From the sequence record SRR31156797_4552: a stretch of DNA of 64,000 nt. One strand, given 5' to 3'. Below are positions 3,253-36,060 of this stretch, piece after piece. The notes beneath the pieces were generated by a model that did no database searches, was not told the DNA's origin, and saw only the letters and a program-made list of their open reading frames with translations. The translations under genes were made by a program, and so were the position numbers. The stretch's first letter is position 1. Each line of letters opens with the position of its first letter.

Positions 3253-4224
3253 TTATTTGGAGAAGTGATCAAATCCTCCGGCAGTGTATTCTTTGCCATT
3301 GAGCAATATTTTGTGATCCCCGGTGATTGTGCCAATTTGGTGCAGGCCGGGGATTTCTGCTTTTAATTCTGCAAATCTTTCAGCAGAAGCAGCTCCAAAA
3401 AGGGCGTAATCCTCACCACCTAGAAAAGCGTGTTCTGCAGCGGGAATTGATTTTGATTCCGCGTAGCGGATGATCTCTTCGTGTAGTTGTGATTCATCCA
3501 GTGAAATTTCAGCTCCTAAATTGCCGTTACAGCAGCCTAGAAAACGGGGCAAATCACGGGCCAGACCGTCTGAAAGATCCATCAGTCCCTTTACGTGAGG
3601 TGACTCGGCCAGTTTGATCCCGGCTTCTACACGCATGGTCGGTCGCAGGTGGGCTTGGACACATTCAGGGTAATAATCAATAGCTTTTGTCTTCGATTCT
3701 TCAAGCACCAGCAGTCCTGTGCGGGCCATACCTGCCGGACCGTGCAGAAATAGAATATCGCCCGGTTCGGCATTACCACGCGAAAGAAAACGTCCTCCTG
3801 CAGCTTCGCCCCAGACTGTCACTGAAATTCCCAGATATTGACCGCCGGAAAGATCGCCTCCGGCTAGAATCAGGCCATGTTGTTGGGCAAGGGCGGACAT
3901 GGATTTAAAGAAAGGCTCCCAGAATTCACTTTCGAGGTTGGGCGGAATAATCAGACCCAGTGCAAATCCACAGGGCTGGCCTCCCATGGCTGCAATATCA
4001 CTGATATTAACCGCAAGGGATTTGTAGCCGATGTCTGTCGGAGAGAAGTACGAGCGTCTGAAGTGCACATCTTCCAGAAACAAGTCCTTACTGATGCATA
4101 GATCGTTTTCAGTACGCAGGATGGAACAATCGTCTCCACGTCCAAGGGTGACATGACCGTTCTCGGATGGAAAATATTTATCGATCAGGATCAGGAAATC
4201 CTGTTCTGAATTTAATTTTGTCAT
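3253..4224 (-). CDS. thiL: Thiamine-monophosphate kinase
   Basis: GRGDDC, EDVHF, NISDIAAMGG, GGDL, MDLSDGL, GGEDY motifs. Confidence 0.92.
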   Translation of the reverse strand: MTKLNSEQDFLILIDKYFPSENGHVTLGRGDDCSILRTENDLCISKDLFLEDVHFRRSYFSPTDIGYKSLAVNISDIAAMGGQPCGFALGLIIPPNLESEFWEPFFKSMSALAQQHGLILAGGDLSGGQYLGISVTVWGEAAGGRFLSRGNAEPGDILFLHGPAGMARTGLLVLEESKTKAIDYYPECVQAHLRPTMRVEAGIKLAESPHVKGLMDLSDGLARDLPRFLGCCNGNLGAEISLDESQLHEEIIRYAESKSIPAAEHAFLGGEDYALFGAASAERFAELKAEIPGLHQIGTITGDHKILLNGKEYTAGGFDHFSK

Positions 4225-4227
4225 TGC

Positions 4228-6351
4228 TTACAGCATCTCCACAAAATCTTCGACAATGACCTTGGGGCCGAAGCCGGGGAAATTGATACGCAGCTTGTTT
4301 GGCTCAATGCGCTCTATGATCTTGCCGCGTCCGAAGATCTTGTGCTTGCAATGACCAAGCTTCATGGGCGAGGGCTTTTTGGAAGCTGAGATTGAAGGAG
4401 CTGTGTCGACATAGGCGGCAGGATTTACCGGAGCAGTTTTTTTCTTTGCCATGCCTCCGGAATAGGATTCCTGCAATTCATCGAAAAGCTCGGGATCAAG
4501 CTCACGCAGAAACGGGCTGGGAACTGCCGGTTCAGAGAAATCTGTGTTCTTGCGGTTGATGGAGGCCGGGGCGCACATGATAAGTTCCTGCCGTGCACGG
4601 GTGCAGGCCACGTAGAGTAATCTGCGTTCCTCTTCATATTCATTAGGTTTCTGCATGGATTTGCGGGACGGAAAACGGTCCTCAACAAGATCAATGATGA
4701 TAACCGCATTCCATTCGAGCCCCTTAGCGGAGTGGATGGTGGAAAGGGTGACTACGTCTTCCTCTTTCTCTTCCTCGCTGTGTTGATCGGGATCAAGGCA
4801 AAGGTCGGTCAGGAAATATTCCAGATCATCATAGTTTGATGCAATCTGGTTGAGTTGTTCAATTCCGGCCTCGCGGCGCGGGTAATCGTCCGGGTACTGA
4901 GCCACTAACAATGGCTTGTAAAGCGGCACGATGATTTCAAGGCAGGTTGCCGGGGAGGAGTTCTTTTTTCGCAGCCCGTCAAGATCGCGCAGAATATCCT
5001 GTAGCAACTGGTACTTCTTCGTAAATTTCCCCAGTGCTTTCCGGTCTGCTGAAATTACAGCTTGAGCGATTTTTGTTGCGGTCTTGGGGCCTACTCCCTT
5101 GATGTGTCCAAGGGTGCGCTGCCAAGCGATTATATCCGCCGGGTTGCTGACCAATCGCATAAAGGCCAGAACATCTTTGATATGCGCAGCTTCATTGAAT
5201 TTCAGGCCACCGTATTTTTTGAATCCTACACCCAGTCGTTTCAGGGCAACTTCTAGCCCGTAACTTTGGTATCCGGCGCGGAAAAGTACCGCTACTTCTT
5301 CGGGGCCGTGTTTCTTCTGCAATTCGATGATCCGGTCCAGCACGCGGTTGGATTGGCTGAAATCGCTGAGCGGAACCATGAGTTGCGGCTTGCAGCCCCA
5401 TGTCTGTTCGGTGAAAAGTTTCTTATCGAATTTGGTCTCGGCCCCGTCCAGAATAGCGTTGGTCAGGTCGAGGATGGGTTGGGTGGAGCGGTAGTTCTGC
5501 TCCAGCCGCACGACTTTTACATCTTCAAAAATATCAGGAAATTTCAAAATGTTGGTAACGTCTGCGCCACGGAAAGAATAAATGGACTGAGCATCATCAC
5601 CCACAGCCATGACGTTTCCGTTTTTTCCGGCCAGCAATCCTACGATACGGGCTTGCACAAGGTTGGTATCCTGATATTCGTCGACCATGATGTACTGGTA
5701 GCGTGAACGCAGGGAGTTGCGCAGGAATTTGTCCTCTTGCAGCAGTTTTTCAAGGTAGAAGAGCAGATCGTCATAATCCATCAGGCCGTGCTGTTTTTTG
5801 TAAATAGCGTAGCCCTTGGCAATTTGTTCCATTTCGGAAGCGTAGGTTGCCAGATGGAATGCCTCGGAATTGACAAGCGTATCAATGGAAAGTTCTTTGT
5901 TACGCGACTTACTGATCATATCCAGAAGGGTGGATTTCTTGGGGTATGAGCGGTCACCCTTACCGAATTTCAGGCTGTCTTTGACTTCTTTAACCGCTGC
6001 TTCAGAGTCACTGCGGTCCATGAGGGTTATGCCGTTCGGGAAGCCGATTTCAGCGGCATTTTGCCGCAGTACGGAATATGCAAAAGCGTGAAATGTTCCG
6101 CCCTGAGTGCCGTGTAGATTTCTGCCCAGAATCAGTTCGGTACGCTGGAGCATTTCCTGCGCGGCCTTGCGGGTGAAGGTCATCAGCAGGATGGATTCCG
6201 GCGGGATACCTTGTTCCACCAGCCATGCCAGGCGATATACAATTGTACGGGTCTTGCCGCTGCCTGCACCTGCAATTACCAGCACCGGACCTTGAGGATG
6301 TGTTGCAGCTTCATATTGAGCCGGGTTCAATTCATTTTTGAAATCGATCAT
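4228..6351 (-). CDS. UvrD/PcrA/Rep-family ATP-dependent DNA helicase
   Basis: LNPAQ, AGAGSGKT, VDEYQD, VGDDAQSIYSFRGA, QNYRS, TIHSAKGLEW, EERRLLYVACTRA; ATG 6351 with GGAGG SD. Confidence 0.95.
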   Translation of the reverse strand: MIDFKNELNPAQYEAATHPQGPVLVIAGAGSGKTRTIVYRLAWLVEQGIPPESILLMTFTRKAAQEMLQRTELILGRNLHGTQGGTFHAFAYSVLRQNAAEIGFPNGITLMDRSDSEAAVKEVKDSLKFGKGDRSYPKKSTLLDMISKSRNKELSIDTLVNSEAFHLATYASEMEQIAKGYAIYKKQHGLMDYDDLLFYLEKLLQEDKFLRNSLRSRYQYIMVDEYQDTNLVQARIVGLLAGKNGNVMAVGDDAQSIYSFRGADVTNILKFPDIFEDVKVVRLEQNYRSTQPILDLTNAILDGAETKFDKKLFTEQTWGCKPQLMVPLSDFSQSNRVLDRIIELQKKHGPEEVAVLFRAGYQSYGLEVALKRLGVGFKKYGGLKFNEAAHIKDVLAFMRLVSNPADIIAWQRTLGHIKGVGPKTATKIAQAVISADRKALGKFTKKYQLLQDILRDLDGLRKKNSSPATCLEIIVPLYKPLLVAQYPDDYPRREAGIEQLNQIASNYDDLEYFLTDLCLDPDQHSEEEKEEDVVTLSTIHSAKGLEWNAVIIIDLVEDRFPSRKSMQKPNEYEEERRLLYVACTRARQELIMCAPASINRKNTDFSEPAVPSPFLRELDPELFDELQESYSGGMAKKKTAPVNPAAYVDTAPSISASKKPSPMKLGHCKHKIFGRGKIIERIEPNKLRINFPGFGPKVIVEDFVEML

Positions 6352-6360
6352 GATGTATAT

Positions 6361-6453
6361 ATGCCTCCGGCGGCCCTTCAGGTCAGGGAGCAAAGAAATT
6401 TTTTGAAAAAAGTTTCTCTGCACTCTTCAAAAACTGTTAATTAGGCTTCGCCG
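6361..6453 (+). repeat. Intergenic palindromic REP/MITE-like element, copy A
   Basis: ATGCCTCCGGCGGCCCTTC...AGAAATTTTTTGAAAAAAGTTTCTCTG-ACTC-TCAAAAACT...GGCTTCGCCG; aligns by eye with 43599-43684. Confidence 0.75.
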
Positions 6454-6482
6454 CTTCGTGTGTAAAATTAGTTGTGAATTTG

Positions 6483-7778
6483 TTAATTTGGCAGAGTAAT
6501 ATTGAACCAGTCAAGTATGATTTGTCCGGTCTGGTGCATGGTGTTTATCTGTTGTCCGTCGGAACTGTAGAAGAATGCGTCTTTTACAGTATGTGTGCCG
6601 GTTCTGCCGTGGAATCCGAAAATTTCCGTCCGGTCGAATTTTGCTTTGAGGTCAAATCCTGATTTAGCAGTGCAGATTAAGTCCGGTGGATTGCCGATAG
6701 GGCTGTCACCATAAGCTTCGCTTTTAGTGAGAACTTTTTCCACGACCTGTTGTCCGTTGAATTCGAGTTGCATGAGTTTGTCGGTTATTTCAGTCGTGAT
6801 TTTTTCTGCTTGTGTGGGCATAACCTGTCCGTGTGCAAAATCAGATGTATGGATATATATTCTTCCGGGATCAAGAGCAAATGCTTTGCTGGCCGGGGAA
6901 ATGATGGTTGAATCCCACTGGTCCTTAGCAGGTTGGGCGTATTCAAGATAGCCATGCTGTACGAGGAATGTGTTCAGGTCCACTTCAGTTTCAAGTGCTG
7001 CAAAACCGTGGTCGGCAAATGAAATTAGCTTTTTTTCTCCCGGCAGAGCTTCGAATTTGTCCAGCACTACACCGATTGCCCGATCCCACTTGTGCATGAA
7101 TTCAGCAGCCTTGGGGTAAAGGGGATGGTTCTCGTCTTCGAATGCAGGATAGAAAAAATGGAAAAGGCGGTCTGTCTCTGTAAAAACGATGGTGAATAAG
7201 TCCCACGCAAGATCGTTCCAGAACATTTCCAGTGCTTTCAAGCGGCATTCAAGGGTGAGTGCAACTTGATCAAAAAGATAATCCGGGTCCATAATGCCCC
7301 GGCTGGTATCCGCTTCAAGTTGGTATCCGGTATCGCGTAATGGTCCAAGTAAGAATGGTGGCTGCACAGCCTTCGCAAGGGACTCTGCTACAAAGCCGGA
7401 AATAAGCATGCCCCGCAGTGGCTTGGCGGGGTAGGTATTGGGTAGGTTGATGACTTTGCTGATTAATCCTTTTTCACCCAACGCATCGAAAATTGTTGGG
7501 CAGAGCACCTGTTCGAAATTATTGATGGAAAGGGTGTAATTTTGCGGATTTATTGATGTGAACCCGTAAATTCCGTGCTTTTTAGGTTTCTGTGCTGTAA
7601 AAAAAGAAGTCCAGTTTACCGGAGAAAGTTCCGGTAACTCGGCTGTGATGGGTTCGCATTTTCCCGTAATACGTCTAAGATTGGGCATTTTTTTTGCCCA
7701 CTGCAAAGCAAGAGAGGCTGGAAGTCCATCTAGCCCCAATACTACGAATCTTTTACGTTCTGTTGGATTTAAAAGCAT
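6483..7778 (-). CDS. Alkaline-phosphatase-superfamily nucleotide pyrophosphatase/phosphodiesterase
   Basis: VVLGLDG, PELSPVNWTS, HGIYGF, ETDRLFH, ADHGF, TGTH metal-site motifs. Confidence 0.85.
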   Translation of the reverse strand: MLLNPTERKRFVVLGLDGLPASLALQWAKKMPNLRRITGKCEPITAELPELSPVNWTSFFTAQKPKKHGIYGFTSINPQNYTLSINNFEQVLCPTIFDALGEKGLISKVINLPNTYPAKPLRGMLISGFVAESLAKAVQPPFLLGPLRDTGYQLEADTSRGIMDPDYLFDQVALTLECRLKALEMFWNDLAWDLFTIVFTETDRLFHFFYPAFEDENHPLYPKAAEFMHKWDRAIGVVLDKFEALPGEKKLISFADHGFAALETEVDLNTFLVQHGYLEYAQPAKDQWDSTIISPASKAFALDPGRIYIHTSDFAHGQVMPTQAEKITTEITDKLMQLEFNGQQVVEKVLTKSEAYGDSPIGNPPDLICTAKSGFDLKAKFDRTEIFGFHGRTGTHTVKDAFFYSSDGQQINTMHQTGQIILDWFNITLPN

Positions 7779-7845
7779 ATTATTTGAGTATGGTACAGAA
7801 CTAAACTATTAAAATTTTTTAATAAAAGTGCGAAGCGCAGTAAAT

Positions 7846-8730
7846 TTATAAAACTACAAGTTCATACTTTTTCATAAAATGTACGGGATTGTATGATTCT
7901 TTTGCTTTGCGCAAGCCGGGTTCACCGAGATCCTGCTCACGGTTAACGAATTCTTTGTCGCTGGCGTTGTTTTCGAGGAACATCTGGTTAATAGCCTGAT
8001 ATACCCCTTTGAAATAGGTGTTTCCTTTTTCAAAATGAATAACGATGGTGTCATCACCTAAAGGTTCGGCAATGGTGTAGGCGATGATGCGGTTGTCGAT
8101 GCGCAGGGTTCCGCCGGTAAGGTTTTTGATGGTGTCCATTTCCTTGAGTACCTTGGCAATGGCTTCGTTTTCGGCCACCAGTGCGGGGGAGAAATTTTTT
8201 TCTTCCTGCCAGCGATACCATTCAAGCTGCATTTCCAGCACTTCTTCTACACAATCCGGAGTGATTTCACGATATTCATAATCGTACTTTTTCATGAATT
8301 GGCGGTAGAGATTCTTCTTTTTATGGAAACGGTTTCCACGCAGTTCTGTCAGTTCCTGCACAGAGTATACGTAATCGAAATGGTCACGGTTCTCGGTAAT
8401 TTCGATTCTGTCGCCGAAAATTTCTTTGAGATGCAGGGCCAGTTTTTCAGGTACGCGGGTAAATTTGGTGCCGGGGGTGTTCATGAGTTCGCACTTTTTC
8501 CAGTCCGCGCTGAACCAGTCCCCTATGGGGGCCCAATTGATTATTTCAGGCTTGGTCTGGCGTACGTGGATAAGTCCTGATTTTCCGCAGCGTAATTCAA
8601 GACCGTAATGTTCGGTCCAGCCCCATATGTTGGCAAAGGTGAAATCAGAAGTGCGTTGCGGGCAGGCTGCTAGAGCCCTTTCAAATTCGTCCTGACATTC
8701 AAGGGTTATGGGCTTGAATTCGTTATTCAT
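7846..8730 (-). CDS. Stand-alone DUF2156 (MprF-synthase-like, GNAT-fold) protein
   Basis: SDFTFANIW, DYVY...L.G.RFHKKKN, IHFEKG, GVYQAIN, NREQDLG.PGLRKAKESY pattern typical of stand-alone DUF2156 proteins. Confidence 0.8.
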   Translation of the reverse strand: MNNEFKPITLECQDEFERALAACPQRTSDFTFANIWGWTEHYGLELRCGKSGLIHVRQTKPEIINWAPIGDWFSADWKKCELMNTPGTKFTRVPEKLALHLKEIFGDRIEITENRDHFDYVYSVQELTELRGNRFHKKKNLYRQFMKKYDYEYREITPDCVEEVLEMQLEWYRWQEEKNFSPALVAENEAIAKVLKEMDTIKNLTGGTLRIDNRIIAYTIAEPLGDDTIVIHFEKGNTYFKGVYQAINQMFLENNASDKEFVNREQDLGEPGLRKAKESYNPVHFMKKYELVVL

Positions 8731-10114
8731 TACTGGTCCTTTTATTGTTTTTCTTGATCATGCTGAATTTCTGCCAGTTCTTGCATGAGAATGTGTAAAA
8801 AATGATGGATGCCTGCAATCCCTGTGAGATGAGCATGGCCATCCATATTCCGGTGGCTGAATGCATAACTTCATGACCCAGAACATAGGCCAACGGCAAT
8901 CTGCATCCCCAAACAGTGATGGCGAAAATGAACAGGTTGTAGATGGTCGCTCCTGCACCGTTCAAAGCTCCGGCCATGATCATGGAGGTCAGGGTGAACG
9001 GAATGGCGAGCATATTGTAGTAAAGATAGTTTACAGCTTCATCAAGGACCACCTGTTCCGGGGCGATGATGGAGGTTACCGGATAAATAACCTGCCAAAG
9101 CAGCAGCGCGGTGATGCTTAGGAACCCGATAGCCAGAAATAGTATTCTATACCCGAATTTTTTGGCTTCGTCAGCTTTACCGTCACCAAGGTAATGCCCG
9201 ATGATGATCGAAGCGGTCATGTTGAAGGCAAATGCGGGCAGGAATAGGATAGATTCAATGCGGATACCCGCGGTCATACCTGCCAGCGCGATTACGTTAT
9301 TTTCGGGTAGGCTGGCGGTGATGGAATAAAGTACCATATATCCGGAATGCCAGACTAATTGCATCAATCCGCTGGGCCATGCAACCTTGAATAGATAAGG
9401 GAAGGCACTTTTCATCCACCTGAGAGGTGCAATGCATTTGCGGTGCAGGTCACCAGAGCGATAGAGAACCGCGAGGTTGAAGAGCGCCCCCATGGTTACG
9501 GAGCCGAATGTTGCCCATGCAAGGCCCTTGTAGCCGAGATCGGGCATTCCCCACATGCCTAAGCCCAAGCCTAAGTCTCCGATAGTGTTGGTGGTCGTGA
9601 CAATAATCATGCTGTACAGGGGAAGCATGACTTTTTTTTGCGCCCGGAAGACCGCATTGGTAATGATCAGCATGTAGTAAATAGGCACGAGATAGAGAAA
9701 TACTTCGATGAAATATTCCATCACGTAACGCATTTCGGTGGGGACTTGTAGAATAGTCAGGATTCCGTTGCGGTATGGAAAGCCGAAGGTGAAGATTATC
9801 AGGCCTAATATGGCTCCGAGGATGCAGCACAGACCAACATACCGTTTTGCCCTCAGCATCATGCCTGCACCGATGGATTGGCTGATTGCGGCCACTGATC
9901 CGTTGGCGGTTGCCATGGCGATGACCAGAAAGAAAAAAAGTGACTGACTGATCATACCCATGGAAGCCTGAATTTCACGCCCCAGTTTGGACGCTACCCA
10001 GACATCCACAAGACCGATCATCAAGTGGAAGAGCATCATCAGTATTTGCGGCCATGACAGGTTCCATATGGTTCTGTATGGAGCGTTGGTCATGTCTGCT
10101 GTAGTCATATTCAT
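8723..10114 (-). CDS. MATE-family (MOP superfamily) transporter
   Basis: About 12 TM segments, LSWPQIL, LVDVWVASKLG, GLAWAT, GIWMAMLIS; overlaps the DUF2156 gene by 8 bp. Confidence 0.9.
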   Translation of the reverse strand: MNMTTADMTNAPYRTIWNLSWPQILMMLFHLMIGLVDVWVASKLGREIQASMGMISQSLFFFLVIAMATANGSVAAISQSIGAGMMLRAKRYVGLCCILGAILGLIIFTFGFPYRNGILTILQVPTEMRYVMEYFIEVFLYLVPIYYMLIITNAVFRAQKKVMLPLYSMIIVTTTNTIGDLGLGLGMWGMPDLGYKGLAWATFGSVTMGALFNLAVLYRSGDLHRKCIAPLRWMKSAFPYLFKVAWPSGLMQLVWHSGYMVLYSITASLPENNVIALAGMTAGIRIESILFLPAFAFNMTASIIIGHYLGDGKADEAKKFGYRILFLAIGFLSITALLLWQVIYPVTSIIAPEQVVLDEAVNYLYYNMLAIPFTLTSMIMAGALNGAGATIYNLFIFAITVWGCRLPLAYVLGHEVMHSATGIWMAMLISQGLQASIIFYTFSCKNWQKFSMIKKNNKRTSNE

Positions 10115-11058: not shown

Positions 11059-11932
11059 AATCCAGAATATAATCAAGATATTTATTATTTGAGGGACGGT
11101 CGGTGTTCTCGTTATTGCCGTTACTGTTCGAGTTGTCTGGGGTGCTGTCAGGCTTAGTGTCTTGTTTGTTCTGGTATGTGTTTCCTGAGTTGGAATAATC
11201 CGTGTCCTGACTGTTTGAATATGAGTTGCCCGAATTGTTGATTGAGTTCGTTGTAGTGGAGCTGTGGCTTGTCTGTCGTGTGCAGCCCGGTCTGTTCACG
11301 TTGATTGTCGGGTTGATGTTTACGTTGGCATTAGGATTCGTACTTTGACTGATGACCGGGTCTTGGTTTGGCCAGCCTTGCTGGTTATTGTTGTTGGTGT
11401 TTGAATAACCAGAATTTGTCGGTCCTGATACTCCGGGATAATGCCATGCATTCATGGCATTTCTCATTTGAACTCTAACCCGGTCATGTCCTTTCATTGC
11501 GTAGCCTATGAAAATATAGTTTGTTCCCCTATAGCGTGAAACTACAAGGTAAGAGTCATACCATTTCCCATCATGGTCATAGCCGGAAAAAAATCTGAGT
11601 ATTGCCGGATAGCCGGAAACGTGTCCCGGCTGTTCATTTAAAAAACGCTGGTACGGTAAGCCCTTGCGTCTTAATCTTTGAGTCCACTTTTCAAGTTCTG
11701 CAACAAGTGAATCTGAGGTCCTTTTTGCGTATAACTGAATTACAGCGTCATTTGTTGGCGGATAGCATTGTTTGACAAGGTGGTTGACGTCATACAGCGG
11801 AGGCATTCTTTTGGTCATTTGCCAGCCGGAAGGGCATTGAAGACCGTCGGCCATGTTTTGGGCGATGGAAATTGGAGGGAATAGGAGGGCTGTCAAAAAT
11901 GCCAGAAAAAAGAATCTTATTGCCTGTTTCAT
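11057..11932 (-). CDS. Secreted hypothetical protein with Asn/Ser/Thr-rich low-complexity C-terminus
   Basis: Signal peptide MKQAIRFFFLAFLTALLFPPISIA; GGAGG SD; ~150-aa globular region then an N/S/T/D-rich tail. Confidence 0.75.
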   Translation of the reverse strand: MKQAIRFFFLAFLTALLFPPISIAQNMADGLQCPSGWQMTKRMPPLYDVNHLVKQCYPPTNDAVIQLYAKRTSDSLVAELEKWTQRLRRKGLPYQRFLNEQPGHVSGYPAILRFFSGYDHDGKWYDSYLVVSRYRGTNYIFIGYAMKGHDRVRVQMRNAMNAWHYPGVSGPTNSGYSNTNNNNQQGWPNQDPVISQSTNPNANVNINPTINVNRPGCTRQTSHSSTTTNSINNSGNSYSNSQDTDYSNSGNTYQNKQDTKPDSTPDNSNSNGNNENTDRPSNNKYLDYILD

Positions 11933-18906: not shown

Positions 18907-19824
18907 TTATTTTTTGTCCATGAACATTGCGACCATTTGGCCGAGAGCAGCGTCGGCTTCATCGTGGGGGACCTGACAGGTTCCGACTTGCTTGTGTCCG
19001 CCGCCGCCGAATTTGAGCATTACACTACCTACATCGATTTTGCTGGTGCGGTTAAGAATGCTGTGACCTACGGAAAACACAGTGTTCTGCTTCATCTTAC
19101 CCCAAATTATCTGGATGCTGATGTTGCATTCCGGGTACATGGAGTAGAGGGTGAACCTGTTGCCTGGGTAGATTTCTTCCTGTTCGCGCAGGTCGAGAAT
19201 GGCGACATTGCCGAACATCTCGGTCCGTTCTTTCAGCATCTCGCGGAATTGTGCATCGCGCTTAAAATAAAGGTCTACACGTTCCTTGACGTCAGGCAAA
19301 ACGAGAATCTCCTCAATGGGCAACTCCCGGCAGTAGTCGATGAGGTGTTCCATGAGTTGGTAGTTACTGACTTCGAAGTGTCTGTATCTGCCAAGTCCGG
19401 TGCGCGGATCCATGATGAAGCCGAGCATAATCCAGCCCTTGGGGTTGGCTACTTCTTCGGCAGTGATGTCTCCGCTGTCCACTTTGTCCACATAGTGGAG
19501 CATCTCATCGAATTTGTCAGCGAACTTTTCATGGCCGCCGAAGTATTCCCAGATAACACGGGCCGCACTCTTGGCCGGTTTAGACATTCCCTTGTAGTCC
19601 AGCTTCATGTTGAGGCGTTCATCCTCACTTGAGTGGTGGTCGAACCAGTAGCCGCAACCTTCTATATATGGGACATTTGCAACTATGTCGTTGGGGTCAC
19701 CGGGGTAGCGTCCATCCTGTACATCCTTGGGATGGACAAACATCCAGTTGTCCATGATTCCGATTTCTTTGAGCAGGACAGCGCAGGCAAGGCCGTCAAA
19801 GTCTGATCGTGTCAAAAGCCGCAT
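18907..19824 (-). CDS. DHH-family phosphoesterase (exopolyphosphatase-related)
   Basis: RSDFDG, FDHH, VDKVDS, GGGGH motifs. Confidence 0.85.
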   Translation of the reverse strand: MRLLTRSDFDGLACAVLLKEIGIMDNWMFVHPKDVQDGRYPGDPNDIVANVPYIEGCGYWFDHHSSEDERLNMKLDYKGMSKPAKSAARVIWEYFGGHEKFADKFDEMLHYVDKVDSGDITAEEVANPKGWIMLGFIMDPRTGLGRYRHFEVSNYQLMEHLIDYCRELPIEEILVLPDVKERVDLYFKRDAQFREMLKERTEMFGNVAILDLREQEEIYPGNRFTLYSMYPECNISIQIIWGKMKQNTVFSVGHSILNRTSKIDVGSVMLKFGGGGHKQVGTCQVPHDEADAALGQMVAMFMDKK

Positions 19825-19955: not shown

Positions 19956-20378
19956 CTATTTGATGACCAGAACAGGGCTTTCGGCAATGTGCAGGACTTT
20001 ATGGGTCACGCTGCCAACAACAAGCCCTTCGAGGTCAGACTTGCCTTTGGAACCCATGATGATCAGGTCGCACCCTTCTGTTTCGGCAACAGTCTTAATT
20101 GATTTTGCTGTGGAGCCGCCGATTATTTTCTCTTCATAATCAATGGCTTTGTCTTTAAGAAGGGCTGCCTTTTGTTCGACGATTGCGTAGGACTCGCGGG
20201 TAGCGTCATCAATCGCTTTCTGGAAATTGGGTTCTCCCAGTCCGGTGGGAACAGGGCGATGGCAGTGGAGGATGATAAGTTTGCCACCGGACATTTCCGC
20301 AAGGGATGCTCCATAGCTTACAGCTCTTTCCGAGTGCTTTGAATCGTCAACAGGAATCAATATTTTGTTAAAAATCAT
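19956..20378 (-). CDS. Universal stress protein
   Basis: KILIPVDDS, DLIIMGSKG...GSVTHKVL, PVLVIK. Confidence 0.92.
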   Translation of the reverse strand: MIFNKILIPVDDSKHSERAVSYGASLAEMSGGKLIILHCHRPVPTGLGEPNFQKAIDDATRESYAIVEQKAALLKDKAIDYEEKIIGGSTAKSIKTVAETEGCDLIIMGSKGKSDLEGLVVGSVTHKVLHIAESPVLVIK

Positions 20379-20635
20379 GTCAGTTCTCCTTCTATGGATG
20401 TTTATGGGATATTACTTGAAGCGGCGGATTGCTGCAACACTATGTGTTTGATCAATTGTATAAGTGGTTGTTTTTGGTGTTACTGAATGGTTGACCAGCC
20501 CATATTTTGGGTGTGTTTGTCATTTCAAAGTAGGGTTAATTGTAGTCTTAAAAATATATATTTGTCATATAGTTCAATTAAAGTAATAGTTTATAGAAAA
20601 AAGTGATTCGTTAATCAAAAAGTGATGAAAAAGTG

Positions 20636-20664
20636 TTGACAGGAATCAATACTGAACGTAGATA
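20636..20664 (+). promoter_or_regulatory. Putative sigma70 promoter for the candidate ncRNA
   Basis: TTGACA-N17-TAGATA with A-tract-rich upstream sequence. Confidence 0.55.
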
Positions 20665-20670
20665 CTGTTT

Positions 20671-21040
20671 CCAGTTGATGTCGCTCTGAAAATGAGTTCA
20701 GGGTAGATGTCTGCAAGGGGCTGATGTAGCCTTCAGGTCTAGCAAGTTTCCTGCTTCCGACGACTGTAGGGGTCTTAGGAAGAAAGTTTGAAAGCTTCAC
20801 CTGATAATGTTGGATGACGATTCAACCGCAACCGCAACTTGCAAGAGTTACTTTGACACAACACGGGGAGAAGCCCGCATCTCTCCCCGAGTCTGATGGA
20901 CATCGGCATTGATCAAAATAAAAGCCCATGATGTGCGGACATGTTCCGGATGTCAGGTTTTTACAGATCAGCTTAGTAAAACACCTTCCGTTTCCATTCC
21001 TTAAAGCATAGGCCCCTCCACCACCGGAGGGGCTTTTGTT
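20671..21040 (+). ncRNA. Candidate ~370-nt structured non-coding RNA (unassigned)
   Basis: No credible ORF between a promoter and a strong terminator; GC-richer than its AT-rich flanks; several hairpins and a repeated GATGT motif. Confidence 0.5.
21011..21040 (+). terminator. Rho-independent terminator
   Basis: GGCCCCTCC-accacc-GGAGGGGCT followed by TTTGTT. Confidence 0.8.
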
Positions 21041-21213
21041 CTTTACGGCAAAGATTAGTGGTAAGTATTTTGGAGAATAGGGATATTAATACTTATTTAT
21101 AAAGTTGCTATTAGGGGTGTGATCACTTTCTGAGTTGACCTTTACTTGATTTTACGTGTAAAGATTTTTTTGTGTCGATAAATTTCAACAAATTGAAATA
21201 ACGAGACTTTATA

Positions 21214-21786
21214 ATGACCAAAAAGGATACAGTTTTAAAAGCGGCCAAAGAGCTTTTCGGAGAGCTTGGTTATAGCGGTACTACATTCAAAAAAATAGCT
21301 GACCGTGCCGGTGTTGCAGTGGGATTGCTTTCCCATCATTACGGAAATAAAGAAAAACTTTTTCGCGCGGCCGGTTTTGATGTTGCTGAACGTTTGACTC
21401 AGGCCTTGCAGGATGAAGTGGTGCAGGCAGAAAATGGTTTTGATGCCGTATACAGATTTGCCCGCCGCTATCTTGAATTTTCCGTTGATCCTGATGAAGA
21501 TTTTCTGGTACTGATCAGATGTTCACCATACAGTGATCTTAAAACCGGGGAAGACAGGGACGCAATGGTTCATAAGTTCGTTCAGATTCCAGTGCTGCTT
21601 GAAAACTGTGTTGCCCGTGGTGTTCGTGACGGTTCCATTCCCAATCTTCCTGTTTCTGAAACCGCTGCCGTTGTCCAGTGTAACCTCGTCGGTGCGGTTA
21701 GGACCAATCTACTTACCCCGTATAGTCCTCCTAGTCTTTATAAGGAAATTTTGAATTTTATCAGCAGAGCACTTAAAGCTGCATAG
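21214..21786 (+). CDS. TetR/AcrR-family transcriptional regulator
   Basis: VLKAAKELFGELGYSGTTFKKIADRAGVAVGLLSHHYGNKEKL HTH. Confidence 0.9.
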   Translation: MTKKDTVLKAAKELFGELGYSGTTFKKIADRAGVAVGLLSHHYGNKEKLFRAAGFDVAERLTQALQDEVVQAENGFDAVYRFARRYLEFSVDPDEDFLVLIRCSPYSDLKTGEDRDAMVHKFVQIPVLLENCVARGVRDGSIPNLPVSETAAVVQCNLVGAVRTNLLTPYSPPSLYKEILNFISRALKAA

Positions 21787-35731: not shown

Positions 35732-35760
35732 TTGACATAGTAAGTGAACAATCATATCTA
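35732..35760 (+). promoter_or_regulatory. sigma70 promoter of the cbiK operon
   Basis: TTGACA-N17-TATCTA directly upstream of the riboswitch. Confidence 0.6.
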
Positions 35761-35766
35761 GCCTTT

Positions 35767-35946
35767 GCCTGAGGCGCTCTCGCGAGCTTAATAGGGAATC
35801 CCGTTAAAATCGGGAACGGACCCGCCGCCGTGAGTCCTGCAAGGTTTCATCCCGTGTGACTGGAATAAATCCGGTCTGCGTGCCACTGAATTAATTTTCG
35901 GGAAGGCCGGGTGGAATAGGACGAGTCGGAAGACCTGCCCGGGTGC
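35767..35946 (+). ncRNA. Cobalamin riboswitch
   Basis: AATAGGGAA, CCCGTTAAAATCGGG, ACGGACCCGCCGCCGTGA, GCCACTG...GGGAAGGC, GAGTCGGAAGACCTGCC (B12 box); upstream of cobalt/corrinoid genes. Confidence 0.93.
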
Positions 35947-36060
35947 AAATCACGATCATTCTGACGGATAACGGGGCTTTTACCTGTCAGAAACTACTGC
36001 ATATGTGCTCACATGTGCGGTTTCGCTATTCTTAAGCCCCCCAAATTTGAGGAGACTGTT

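Follow-up and report, generated by a model that had tools for sequence, protein, structure and literature searches.

A structured RNA with a CU-rich 3′ stretch upstream of tetR in Maridesulfovibrio: a candidate riboregulator

Introduction

What is encoded in the AT-rich spacer that separates usp from tetR? The question is raised by the window, i.e. the whole stretch of 64,000 nt (sequence record SRR31156797_4552) that was analysed here. An earlier note on this DNA had proposed a stand-alone structured non-coding RNA of about 370 nt with repeated GAUGU motifs, either an undescribed protein-titrating sRNA (compare CsrB/RsmZ and CrcZ) or otherwise structured sRNA, or a very long attenuated tetR leader. 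To our knowledge, almost no regulatory RNAs have been characterised in sulfate-reducing Desulfovibrionaceae. The regulatory-RNA catalogue of O. alaskensis G20 includes, in the part of it considered here, Rfam families only (PMC11124144). In the literature covered (supplementary sRNA tables lie outside it), no Desulfovibrionaceae sRNA was found in the usp-tetR spacer or elsewhere upstream of tetR.

Results

The usp-tetR locus and its conservation

The main features of the locus are the following.

19956-20378, minus strand: usp (Pfam Usp)
20636-20664, plus strand: sigma-70-type promoter (TTGACA 20636-20641, 17-nt spacer, TAGATA 20659-20664)
20672-21043, plus strand: predicted RNA, about 372 nt (5′ end placed by the -10 box and 3′ end by the U-tract, both predicted)
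21010-21043, plus strand: intrinsic terminator (stem 21010-21035) and U-tract
21214-21786, plus strand: tetR (Pfam TetR_N)

The RNA tract is flanked by usp and tetR and is richer in G+C (0.45-0.52) than the flanking intergenic DNA (0.22-0.31), as the earlier note had stated. Judged from the relatives of its TetR, the window belongs to Maridesulfovibrio; TetR is 99% identical in the nearest named contigs. One match to the RNA per genome was found in 25 of 26 Maridesulfovibrio genomes. The contig of the 26th begins inside tetR, so the RNA region is missing from that assembly. The same gene order (305-aa ORF, usp, RNA, tetR) recurs at all 25 related loci compared, with the RNA upstream of tetR and on its strand each time (25/25).

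In a sample of the family, 10 of 201 genomes match the tract, three of these matches being stretches of at most 36 nt, and a profile search (nhmmer) upstream of orthologous tetR genes gave nothing in 72 loci of other genera (L009-L080). By these searches the RNA is confined to one genus.

The 305-aa ORF adjoining usp (18907-19824, minus strand) has no Pfam or NCBIfam match, yet its identity within the genus is 82-97%, and it accompanies usp and the RNA in every locus compared. TetR (21214-21786, plus strand) retains 55-64% identity over many Desulfovibrionaceae genera (80 loci kept of 161 confirmed), which is, as far as these sequences go, unusually high for its family. It has no NCBIfam equivalog above cut-off. 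The fixed position of the RNA next to a TetR that is 55-64% identical across the family suggests that the two may form a regulatory pair.

Promoter, terminator and family assignment

The promoter was compared in 26 sequences (the window, 24 full-length loci and the short variant L095 described below). TTGACA is found in 25, the 17-nt spacer in all 26 and TAGATA in 24, so the TTGACA-N17-TAGATA promoter reported earlier is in place and near-invariant. It is preceded by an A-rich tract, and TGAACG at the end of the spacer is conserved too. The site at 20636-20664 is not listed by the promoter scan, whose rule requires the second hexamer to end in T. In the four genomes searched, the promoter motif has one site per genome (4/4), plus one site with two mismatches in G011. 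A regulon sharing this motif was considered and is ruled out by its uniqueness in each of these four genomes.

The strong terminator of the earlier note was likewise recovered and is conserved in the homologues. Its hairpin (21010-21035) has 10 pairs (7 G-C), a loop of 6 and a T-rich tail, TTGTTCTTTA; in the consensus fold described below it has 14 pairs, and 95.3% of their cells are paired.

No known family accounts for the RNA. None of the 4227 models of Rfam 15 matches it at gathering score, in agreement with the earlier expectation; the best sub-threshold scores (18.6 bits against a cut-off of 50, and 18.1 against 41) are confined to the 3′ end. No description of the RNA was found in Rfam 15 or in the literature covered; it is a new family. 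Two familiar candidates were rejected. 6S RNA has no RF00013 match in the window, and a canonical 6S RNA lies elsewhere in the two genus genomes examined (2/2). Mimicry of, or complementarity to, 16S rRNA (GUAGGGG, CACCU) amounts to 6-8-mers at chance level (E at least 6.9). Elsewhere in the window, a Cobalamin riboswitch aptamer (RF00174, 79.9 bits) is found at 35755-35956 (plus strand).

Consensus fold

The predicted RNA has a minimum free energy (MFE) of -130.2 kcal/mol, with a z-score of -4.35 on the plus strand against -1.53 on the minus strand; the alternation of G-U and G-C in the helices also fits the plus strand. A consensus fold was defined as the pairs common to at least 10 of 25 independent MFE folds. 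It includes 124 pairs in 13 helices. Its elements are given below, together with the single-stranded stretch that precedes the terminator; all are on the plus strand.

20674-20682, plus strand: 5′ strand of P1, GUUGAUGUC, which pairs with 20899-20907 and closes the 5′ domain
20899-20907, plus strand: 3′ strand of P1, GACAUCGGC (consensus fold)
20698-20856, plus strand: multi-branched core of the 5′ domain (P2, P2b, arm P3, hairpin P4)
20698-20706/20848-20856, plus strand: P2 (consensus fold)
20710-20716/20839-20846, plus strand: P2b (consensus fold)
20733-20765/20771-20804, plus strand: arm P3 (consensus fold)
20762-20773, plus strand: hairpin GACU-GUAGG-GGUC capping P3, nearly invariant (loop GUAGG, 20766-20770)
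20809-20826, plus strand: hairpin P4 (consensus fold)
20857-20898, plus strand: hairpin P5 (its loop motif CCGCAUC, 20875-20881, is shared by at least 92% of 25 sequences)
20909-20971, plus strand: long hairpin P6 (UUGAUC.../...GAUCAG; 18+6 pairs, 14 of them changed on both sides)
20972-21004, plus strand: single-stranded CU-rich stretch CUUAGUAAAACACCUUCCGUUUCCAUUCCUUAA, proposed seed (33 nt, directly before the terminator)

In a MAFFT alignment of the 25 sequences, 84.4% of the cells of the consensus are paired, against 78.0% in shuffled alignments. Changes on both sides of a pair are found in 57 of the 124 pairs (42.6 +/- 3.2 shuffled) and in 232 cells (96.8 shuffled). None of 500 shuffles reaches any of these three values (paired cells, changed pairs, changed cells). 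When the partners are slid by 1-3 columns, only 39-48% of the cells are paired, a comparison in which the consensus is favoured since it was derived from the same sequences. RNAalifold gave 65 pairs, 29 of them with compensatory changes, for 13 sequences, and 46 pairs, 15 with compensatory changes, for all 25.

The support extends over the individual helices. P1 has 9 pairs with 95.1% of cells paired, and one pair changes from UA to CG in four sequences. In the core helices (helices 3-9), 75-100% of the cells are paired, and changes on both sides affect 4, 4, 3, 6, 1, 9 and 1 pairs. P5 has 14 pairs, of which 11 are changed on both sides; in one lineage GGGG/CCCC of its stem is swapped for AAAA/UUUU. 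P6 forms one long hairpin in all 25 homologues when these are folded singly. The hairpin capping P3 is conserved in at least 92% of the sequences.

Of the five local hairpins drawn in the earlier note, two are retained in the consensus: CGGGGAGA/UCUCCCCG corresponds to P5 and GGA-CAUGU-UCC to the tip of P6. The other three are not part of it. GTAG-atgt-CTGC and GGCT-gatgt-AGCC represent local alternatives, which 14 and 10 of the 25 sequences retain. The supposed GNRA hairpin, AACUU-GCAA-GAGUU, persists in only 3 of 25; in the consensus, its bases form part of a long-range helix instead.

Its own promoter, its own terminator, a covarying fold and the lack of an Rfam family all agree with the stand-alone structured ncRNA of about 370 nt first proposed, and there is little doubt that such an RNA is real.

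The CU-rich stretch, a short variant and the search for targets

Four elements of the RNA combine an unpaired state with conservation in at least 92% of the 25 sequences: GUAGG, CCGCAUC, CACCUUC and AUUCCUUAAA. The columns of GUAGG have a mean unpaired probability of 0.9-1.0, and the value for the P5 loop is 0.87. The last two elements are blocks of the CU-rich stretch, CACCUUC at 20982-20988 (mean unpaired probability 0.80) and AUUCCUUAAA at 20996-21005 (0.78). The RNA has the features looked for in a base-pairing sRNA with an anti-SD-like seed: it is a separate transcription unit, ends in an intrinsic terminator and exposes a conserved run of pyrimidines.

A short variant occupies the usp-tetR locus of one genome (L095:1340-1562, genome G195; about 220 nt). 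Promoter, 5′ CAGUUGA and terminator are retained, and its CU-rich stretch is unchanged in every letter. Nothing recognisable of P2-P6 is left, and its body is unrelated. The 3′ module is taken as the core of the RNA because the variant keeps the CU-rich strand and the terminator while it loses P2-P6.

Searches for a target of the seed gave none in the three settings covered (complement in four genomes, start region of tetR, duplex scan of the 64-kb window). In four genomes, the 21-nt seed complement was found only in the gene itself, plus one site with three mismatches in G002. Against the start region of tetR, z-scores range from -0.85 to +1.2, with no signal. The best non-self duplex of the window (-30.0 kcal/mol at 11841-11890) is antisense to an ORF and barely better than the minima of control seeds (-25.3 to -28.1).

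Hfq (Pfam PF17209) was not found in any of the four genus genomes searched (G001, G002, G003, G011), and the same search matched five control genomes. Any pairing by the RNA would therefore be independent of Hfq.

A multihaem cytochrome c-like gene carries CUAUUCCUCAAAAAAAGCCCC and a terminator at its 3′ end, where a model of the seed plus terminator gives two weak matches (38.8 and 32.3 bits; L125, G001:C1:2042083-2042149, minus strand; L127, G207). These matches may correspond to a 3′UTR element with a similar pyrimidine motif, or to chance.

Contigs from metatranscriptomes

Sequencing runs sharing words with the window do so in small shares only (0.04-0.20). Four metatranscriptome runs (X1-X3 from one study, X4 from a second) were compared with 20200-21500 in the form of assembled contigs of a relative, about 90-95% alike. 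Such contigs cannot show ends, strand or true level, and the depths that follow are to be read within that limit; sections that no run covers carry no information. In X2, short contigs confined to 20684-21035 have a summed word depth of about 4,000-100,000; the usp contig has a depth of 889 and a tetR contig starting at 21031 a depth of 181. In X3, the depth is 3,900-9,400 in the RNA region, against 300 and 258 in the flanks. In X1, the depth stays at about 550-620 for the most part, except for a 60-nt contig at 7,717; another X1 contig reaches across the terminator into tetR. X4 gave a single 218-nt contig with a depth of 23. These contigs are a hint that the RNA is very abundant and mostly stops at its terminator.

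Discussion

A proposed base-pairing RNA with an added 5′ domain

The reading preferred here is that the RNA, of about 372 nt, comes from a single-copy gene with its own transcription, is probably abundant and would act in trans through its CU-rich seed, without Hfq. A probability of roughly 0.4 is given to it. The seed mechanism itself, taken apart from the rest, is held with somewhat less than even confidence. The CU-rich strand (CACCUUC...AUUCCUUAAA) would pair with purine-rich, Shine-Dalgarno-like stretches of mRNAs, and this pairing would block their translation or alter their stability, independently of Hfq. The 5′ domain of 240 nt (P1-P5, including the conserved loops GUAGG and CCGCAUC) would be a further module, which might bind a protein or a second RNA, provide stability or control access to the seed.

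The 3′ module resembles that of known sRNAs. Base-pairing sRNAs that mask purine-rich ribosome-binding sites usually carry a conserved, unpaired run of pyrimidines next to their intrinsic terminator. mmgR/alpha-r8 (RF00519, 'suhB') and the Betaproteobacteria toxic sRNA RF02278 resemble the window RNA in being stand-alone genes with their own promoter and intrinsic terminator, and in the conserved unpaired pyrimidine-rich stretch adjoining the latter. However, the window RNA scores only 18.1 of 41 bits against RF00519 and 18.6 of 50 against RF02278, with its 3′ end alone, and it is four to five times longer, with a covarying multi-helix domain of 240 nt that they lack. RsaE/RoxS of Firmicutes are trans-acting sRNAs with conserved CU- or C-rich seeds resembling an anti-Shine-Dalgarno sequence, and Firmicutes sRNAs with this type of seed work without Hfq. 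The likeness of the window RNA to them lies in the Hfq-independent action proposed for it, Hfq not having been found in four genomes.

The 5′ domain calls for other comparisons. OLE, ROOL, GOLLD and raiA are large structured bacterial ncRNAs that came from comparative genomics and are all included in Rfam. The window RNA shares with them many covarying helices, highly conserved loop nucleotides and a probable high abundance; it differs in being smaller, in its restriction to one genus, in having no Rfam match and in its clear sRNA-like 3′ module. The probable kind of the RNA, a riboregulator with a CU-rich seed, is familiar, but its large covarying 5′ domain is not.

With a genus-wide and probably very abundant RNA, a well-supported fold, a candidate seed and hosts in which Hfq was not found, the locus offers a tractable way into Hfq-independent riboregulation of marine sulfate reducers. 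The RNA is also a clean candidate for a new Rfam family.

The 5′ domain as a possible protein scaffold

Simple pairing would need no more than a short seed and does not explain a 5′ domain of this size and constraint. The loops of the domain hardly vary, which suggests that its partner is a protein or another RNA. The RNA could be a ribonucleoprotein or protein-titrating RNA, in which the GUAGG and CCGCAUC loops, the CU-rich stretch or all of these bind a protein other than CsrA; the conserved fold would then be a scaffold, and pairing with mRNAs would be secondary or absent. The multi-helix fold, with strong covariation and loop sequences that hardly change, argues for this reading, such covarying folds with constant loops being typical of protein-recognised RNAs. 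The abundance hinted at by the contigs and the empty searches for pairing targets fit it as well. Against it, neither loop is present in L095, although this variant has the CU-rich stretch and occupies the same locus; no repeated motif is conserved; and only TetR and Usp are encoded alongside, with no other partner protein found beside the RNA. A scaffold for another protein is a serious alternative, if a rather unlikely one.

Readings that involve tetR in cis

The base-pairing and sensing roles could also be combined, in a two-part riboregulator. Its 5′ domain would sense a protein or ligand, and a G-rich loop would switch between its own hairpin and either the terminator arm or the seed, which would couple the signal to both the availability of the seed and read-through into tetR. 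The RNA would be an expanded member of an old lineage of tetR-linked anti-SD sRNAs spread over the Desulfovibrionaceae, possibly under the control of TetR. This composite reading is improbable.

A purely cis-acting leader or attenuator of tetR, with the 5′ domain sensing a signal, is judged a little less probable again. The pairing on which it would turn is between the following segments.

20767-20774, plus strand: G-rich loop, AGGGGUCU
21010-21017, plus strand: 5′ arm of the terminator, AGGCCCCU

Their pairing would disrupt termination and lead to read-through. The arm is the best partner of the loop within the RNA (-15.1 kcal/mol; next best -12.2), the energy of the loop-arm pairing is -10.6 or better in 23 of the 25 sequences, the RNA always precedes tetR on the same strand, and one X1 contig spans the terminator into tetR. 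However, the arm differs in the L008 group, L096 and L098, yet the loop is unchanged, so that there is no covariation between them. The terminator and its U-tract are conserved, and no known aptamer matches (Rfam). A promoter-like block (TTGAC...-10-like) lies between the terminator and the ATG of tetR in 26 of 26 aligned sequences, and the depth of the contigs drops from thousands to 181 (X2) and 258 (X3) at about 21031. The long attenuated tetR leader offered by the earlier note is unlikely because of this conserved promoter, to which the drop in depth is added.

The block, judged by sequence alone, reads TTGAC(C/G)TTT...CGT(G)TAA in all 26 sequences. The DNA before tetR also contains short repeats, which are given here with the block.

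21135-21199 of the window: tetR promoter-like block, TTGAC(C)TTTAC...TTTTACGTGTAAAGA, conserved in outline in 26/26
CTTTAC/GTAAAG: inverted repeat spanning the -10 region of tetR
21182-21199: 18-bp palindrome ATTTCAACAAATTGAAAT in the tetR leader, found in the closest relatives only

The inverted repeat and the palindrome are candidate TetR operators.

GAUGU copies and the idea of a CsrA sponge

The earlier note had pointed to repeated GATGT. Its five plus-strand copies are present at 20677, 20706, 20723, 20930 and 20949, and the statement that less than one is expected is correct (0.59 expected in 371 nt, 5 seen, Poisson p 3.7e-4). As a signal, the enrichment does not stand: the motif was picked post hoc, and among 637 pieces of 371 nt taken across the window in 100-nt steps, 23% hold a 5-mer whose enrichment is equal or higher. 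In the alignment, the number of homologues (of 25) with GATGT at these sites is, in order, 20, 15, 11, 6 and 5, and single homologues have 0-5 copies. The only conserved copy is the first, within the 5′ strand of helix P1. The fourth and fifth are opposed strands of hairpin P6, where GAUGUC can pair with itself through G-U.

A sponge of the CsrB/RsmZ/CrcZ type, titrating CsrA (or Hfq/Crc) on repeated GAUGU or GGA motifs, is for these reasons very improbable. CsrA is encoded in all four genus genomes searched (G001, G002, G003, G011), one copy reads GGAUGU (20947-20952), and there is a weak match to RsmY (RF00195, 13.2 bits). That score is far below the gathering score of 57, however; only one of the five sites has GAUGU in most homologues, and this site is a helix strand; GGA occurs 7 times against 7.1 expected and is absent from all the conserved unpaired elements (GUAGG, CCGCAUC, CACCUUC, AUUCCUUAAA); and Hfq was not found in the four genomes. 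CsrB/RsmY/RsmZ and CrcZ are, like the window RNA, multi-hairpin stand-alone RNAs, and CsrA is present in the genus, but the window RNA has no repeated conserved GGA or A-rich loop motifs and its RsmY covariance-model score is far under threshold. The GAUGU copies are rejected as a functional repeat, and a CsrA-like sponge built on them is not supported.

The last alternative, a small-protein gene or non-functional intergenic DNA, hardly deserves consideration: the window copy has ORFs of 27-32 aa on the plus strand, but no ORF of at least 20 aa is found at a constant place or in a constant frame among the 25 homologues (in some, the only ORFs are of 21-26 aa and lie elsewhere), the substitutions track base pairing and not codons, and the region is conserved throughout the genus, so that no conserved small ORF accounts for it, as the earlier note had supposed, and a coding gene is excluded for practical purposes.

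Units upstream of tetR in other genera

The preferred reading, an RNA acting in trans through a CU-rich seed, touches on what is found before orthologous tetR genes elsewhere in the Desulfovibrionaceae. In some other genera, a TTGACA-type promoter and a unit of roughly 150-420 nt precede tetR on the same strand. The units end in (A)CAC(C/U)CCUC (CUCCUC, anti-SD-like) just before a terminator. They are the following.

L012:2372-2830 (Desulfobaculum): single unit
L011:2484-2671: single unit
L019:2403-2656: single unit
L021:2502-2716: single unit
L009:2545-2871: single unit
L024, L029, L039, L040 and L051 (Nitratidesulfovibrio): two tandem units

These units resemble the window RNA in promoter, CU-rich end, terminator and strand relative to tetR, but their bodies are unrelated to it in sequence. 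A strict scan for CUCCUC followed by a terminator was positive in 7 of 68 upstream regions, against 0, 0, 2, 2 and 1 in five controls of equal size; four of the seven positives come from one genus. L012 and the window RNA have in common TTGACAGGA, ACUG..CGUA and the 5′ CAGUUG. The covariance model of the seed plus terminator (R1) gave a best E-value of 0.035, for the terminator only, and 0.38 for L012. Apart from tRNA, these loci have no Rfam match. On these comparisons, homology of the units to the window RNA is not established.

Sequences shared between the RNA and the tetR leader, as expected of a common operator or of pairing, were sought in seven Maridesulfovibrio sequences; none was found in the window or in L006, and the other five gave only A/T-rich 8-11-mers. 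In other genera, an inverted sharing between the 5′ end of the unit and the tetR leader is seen as a 10-mer in L011 and L021 and as an 8-mer in L019. In L011 and L021, the tetR leader contains GCTCAAACAG, whose reverse complement, CTGTTTGAGC, stands at the 5′ end of the unit; in L021 the CTGTTTGAGC motif forms a palindrome, CTGTTTGAGCAAACAG. The inverted 10-mer of L011 and L021 could be a shared TetR operator or a site of pairing between the sRNA and the leader.
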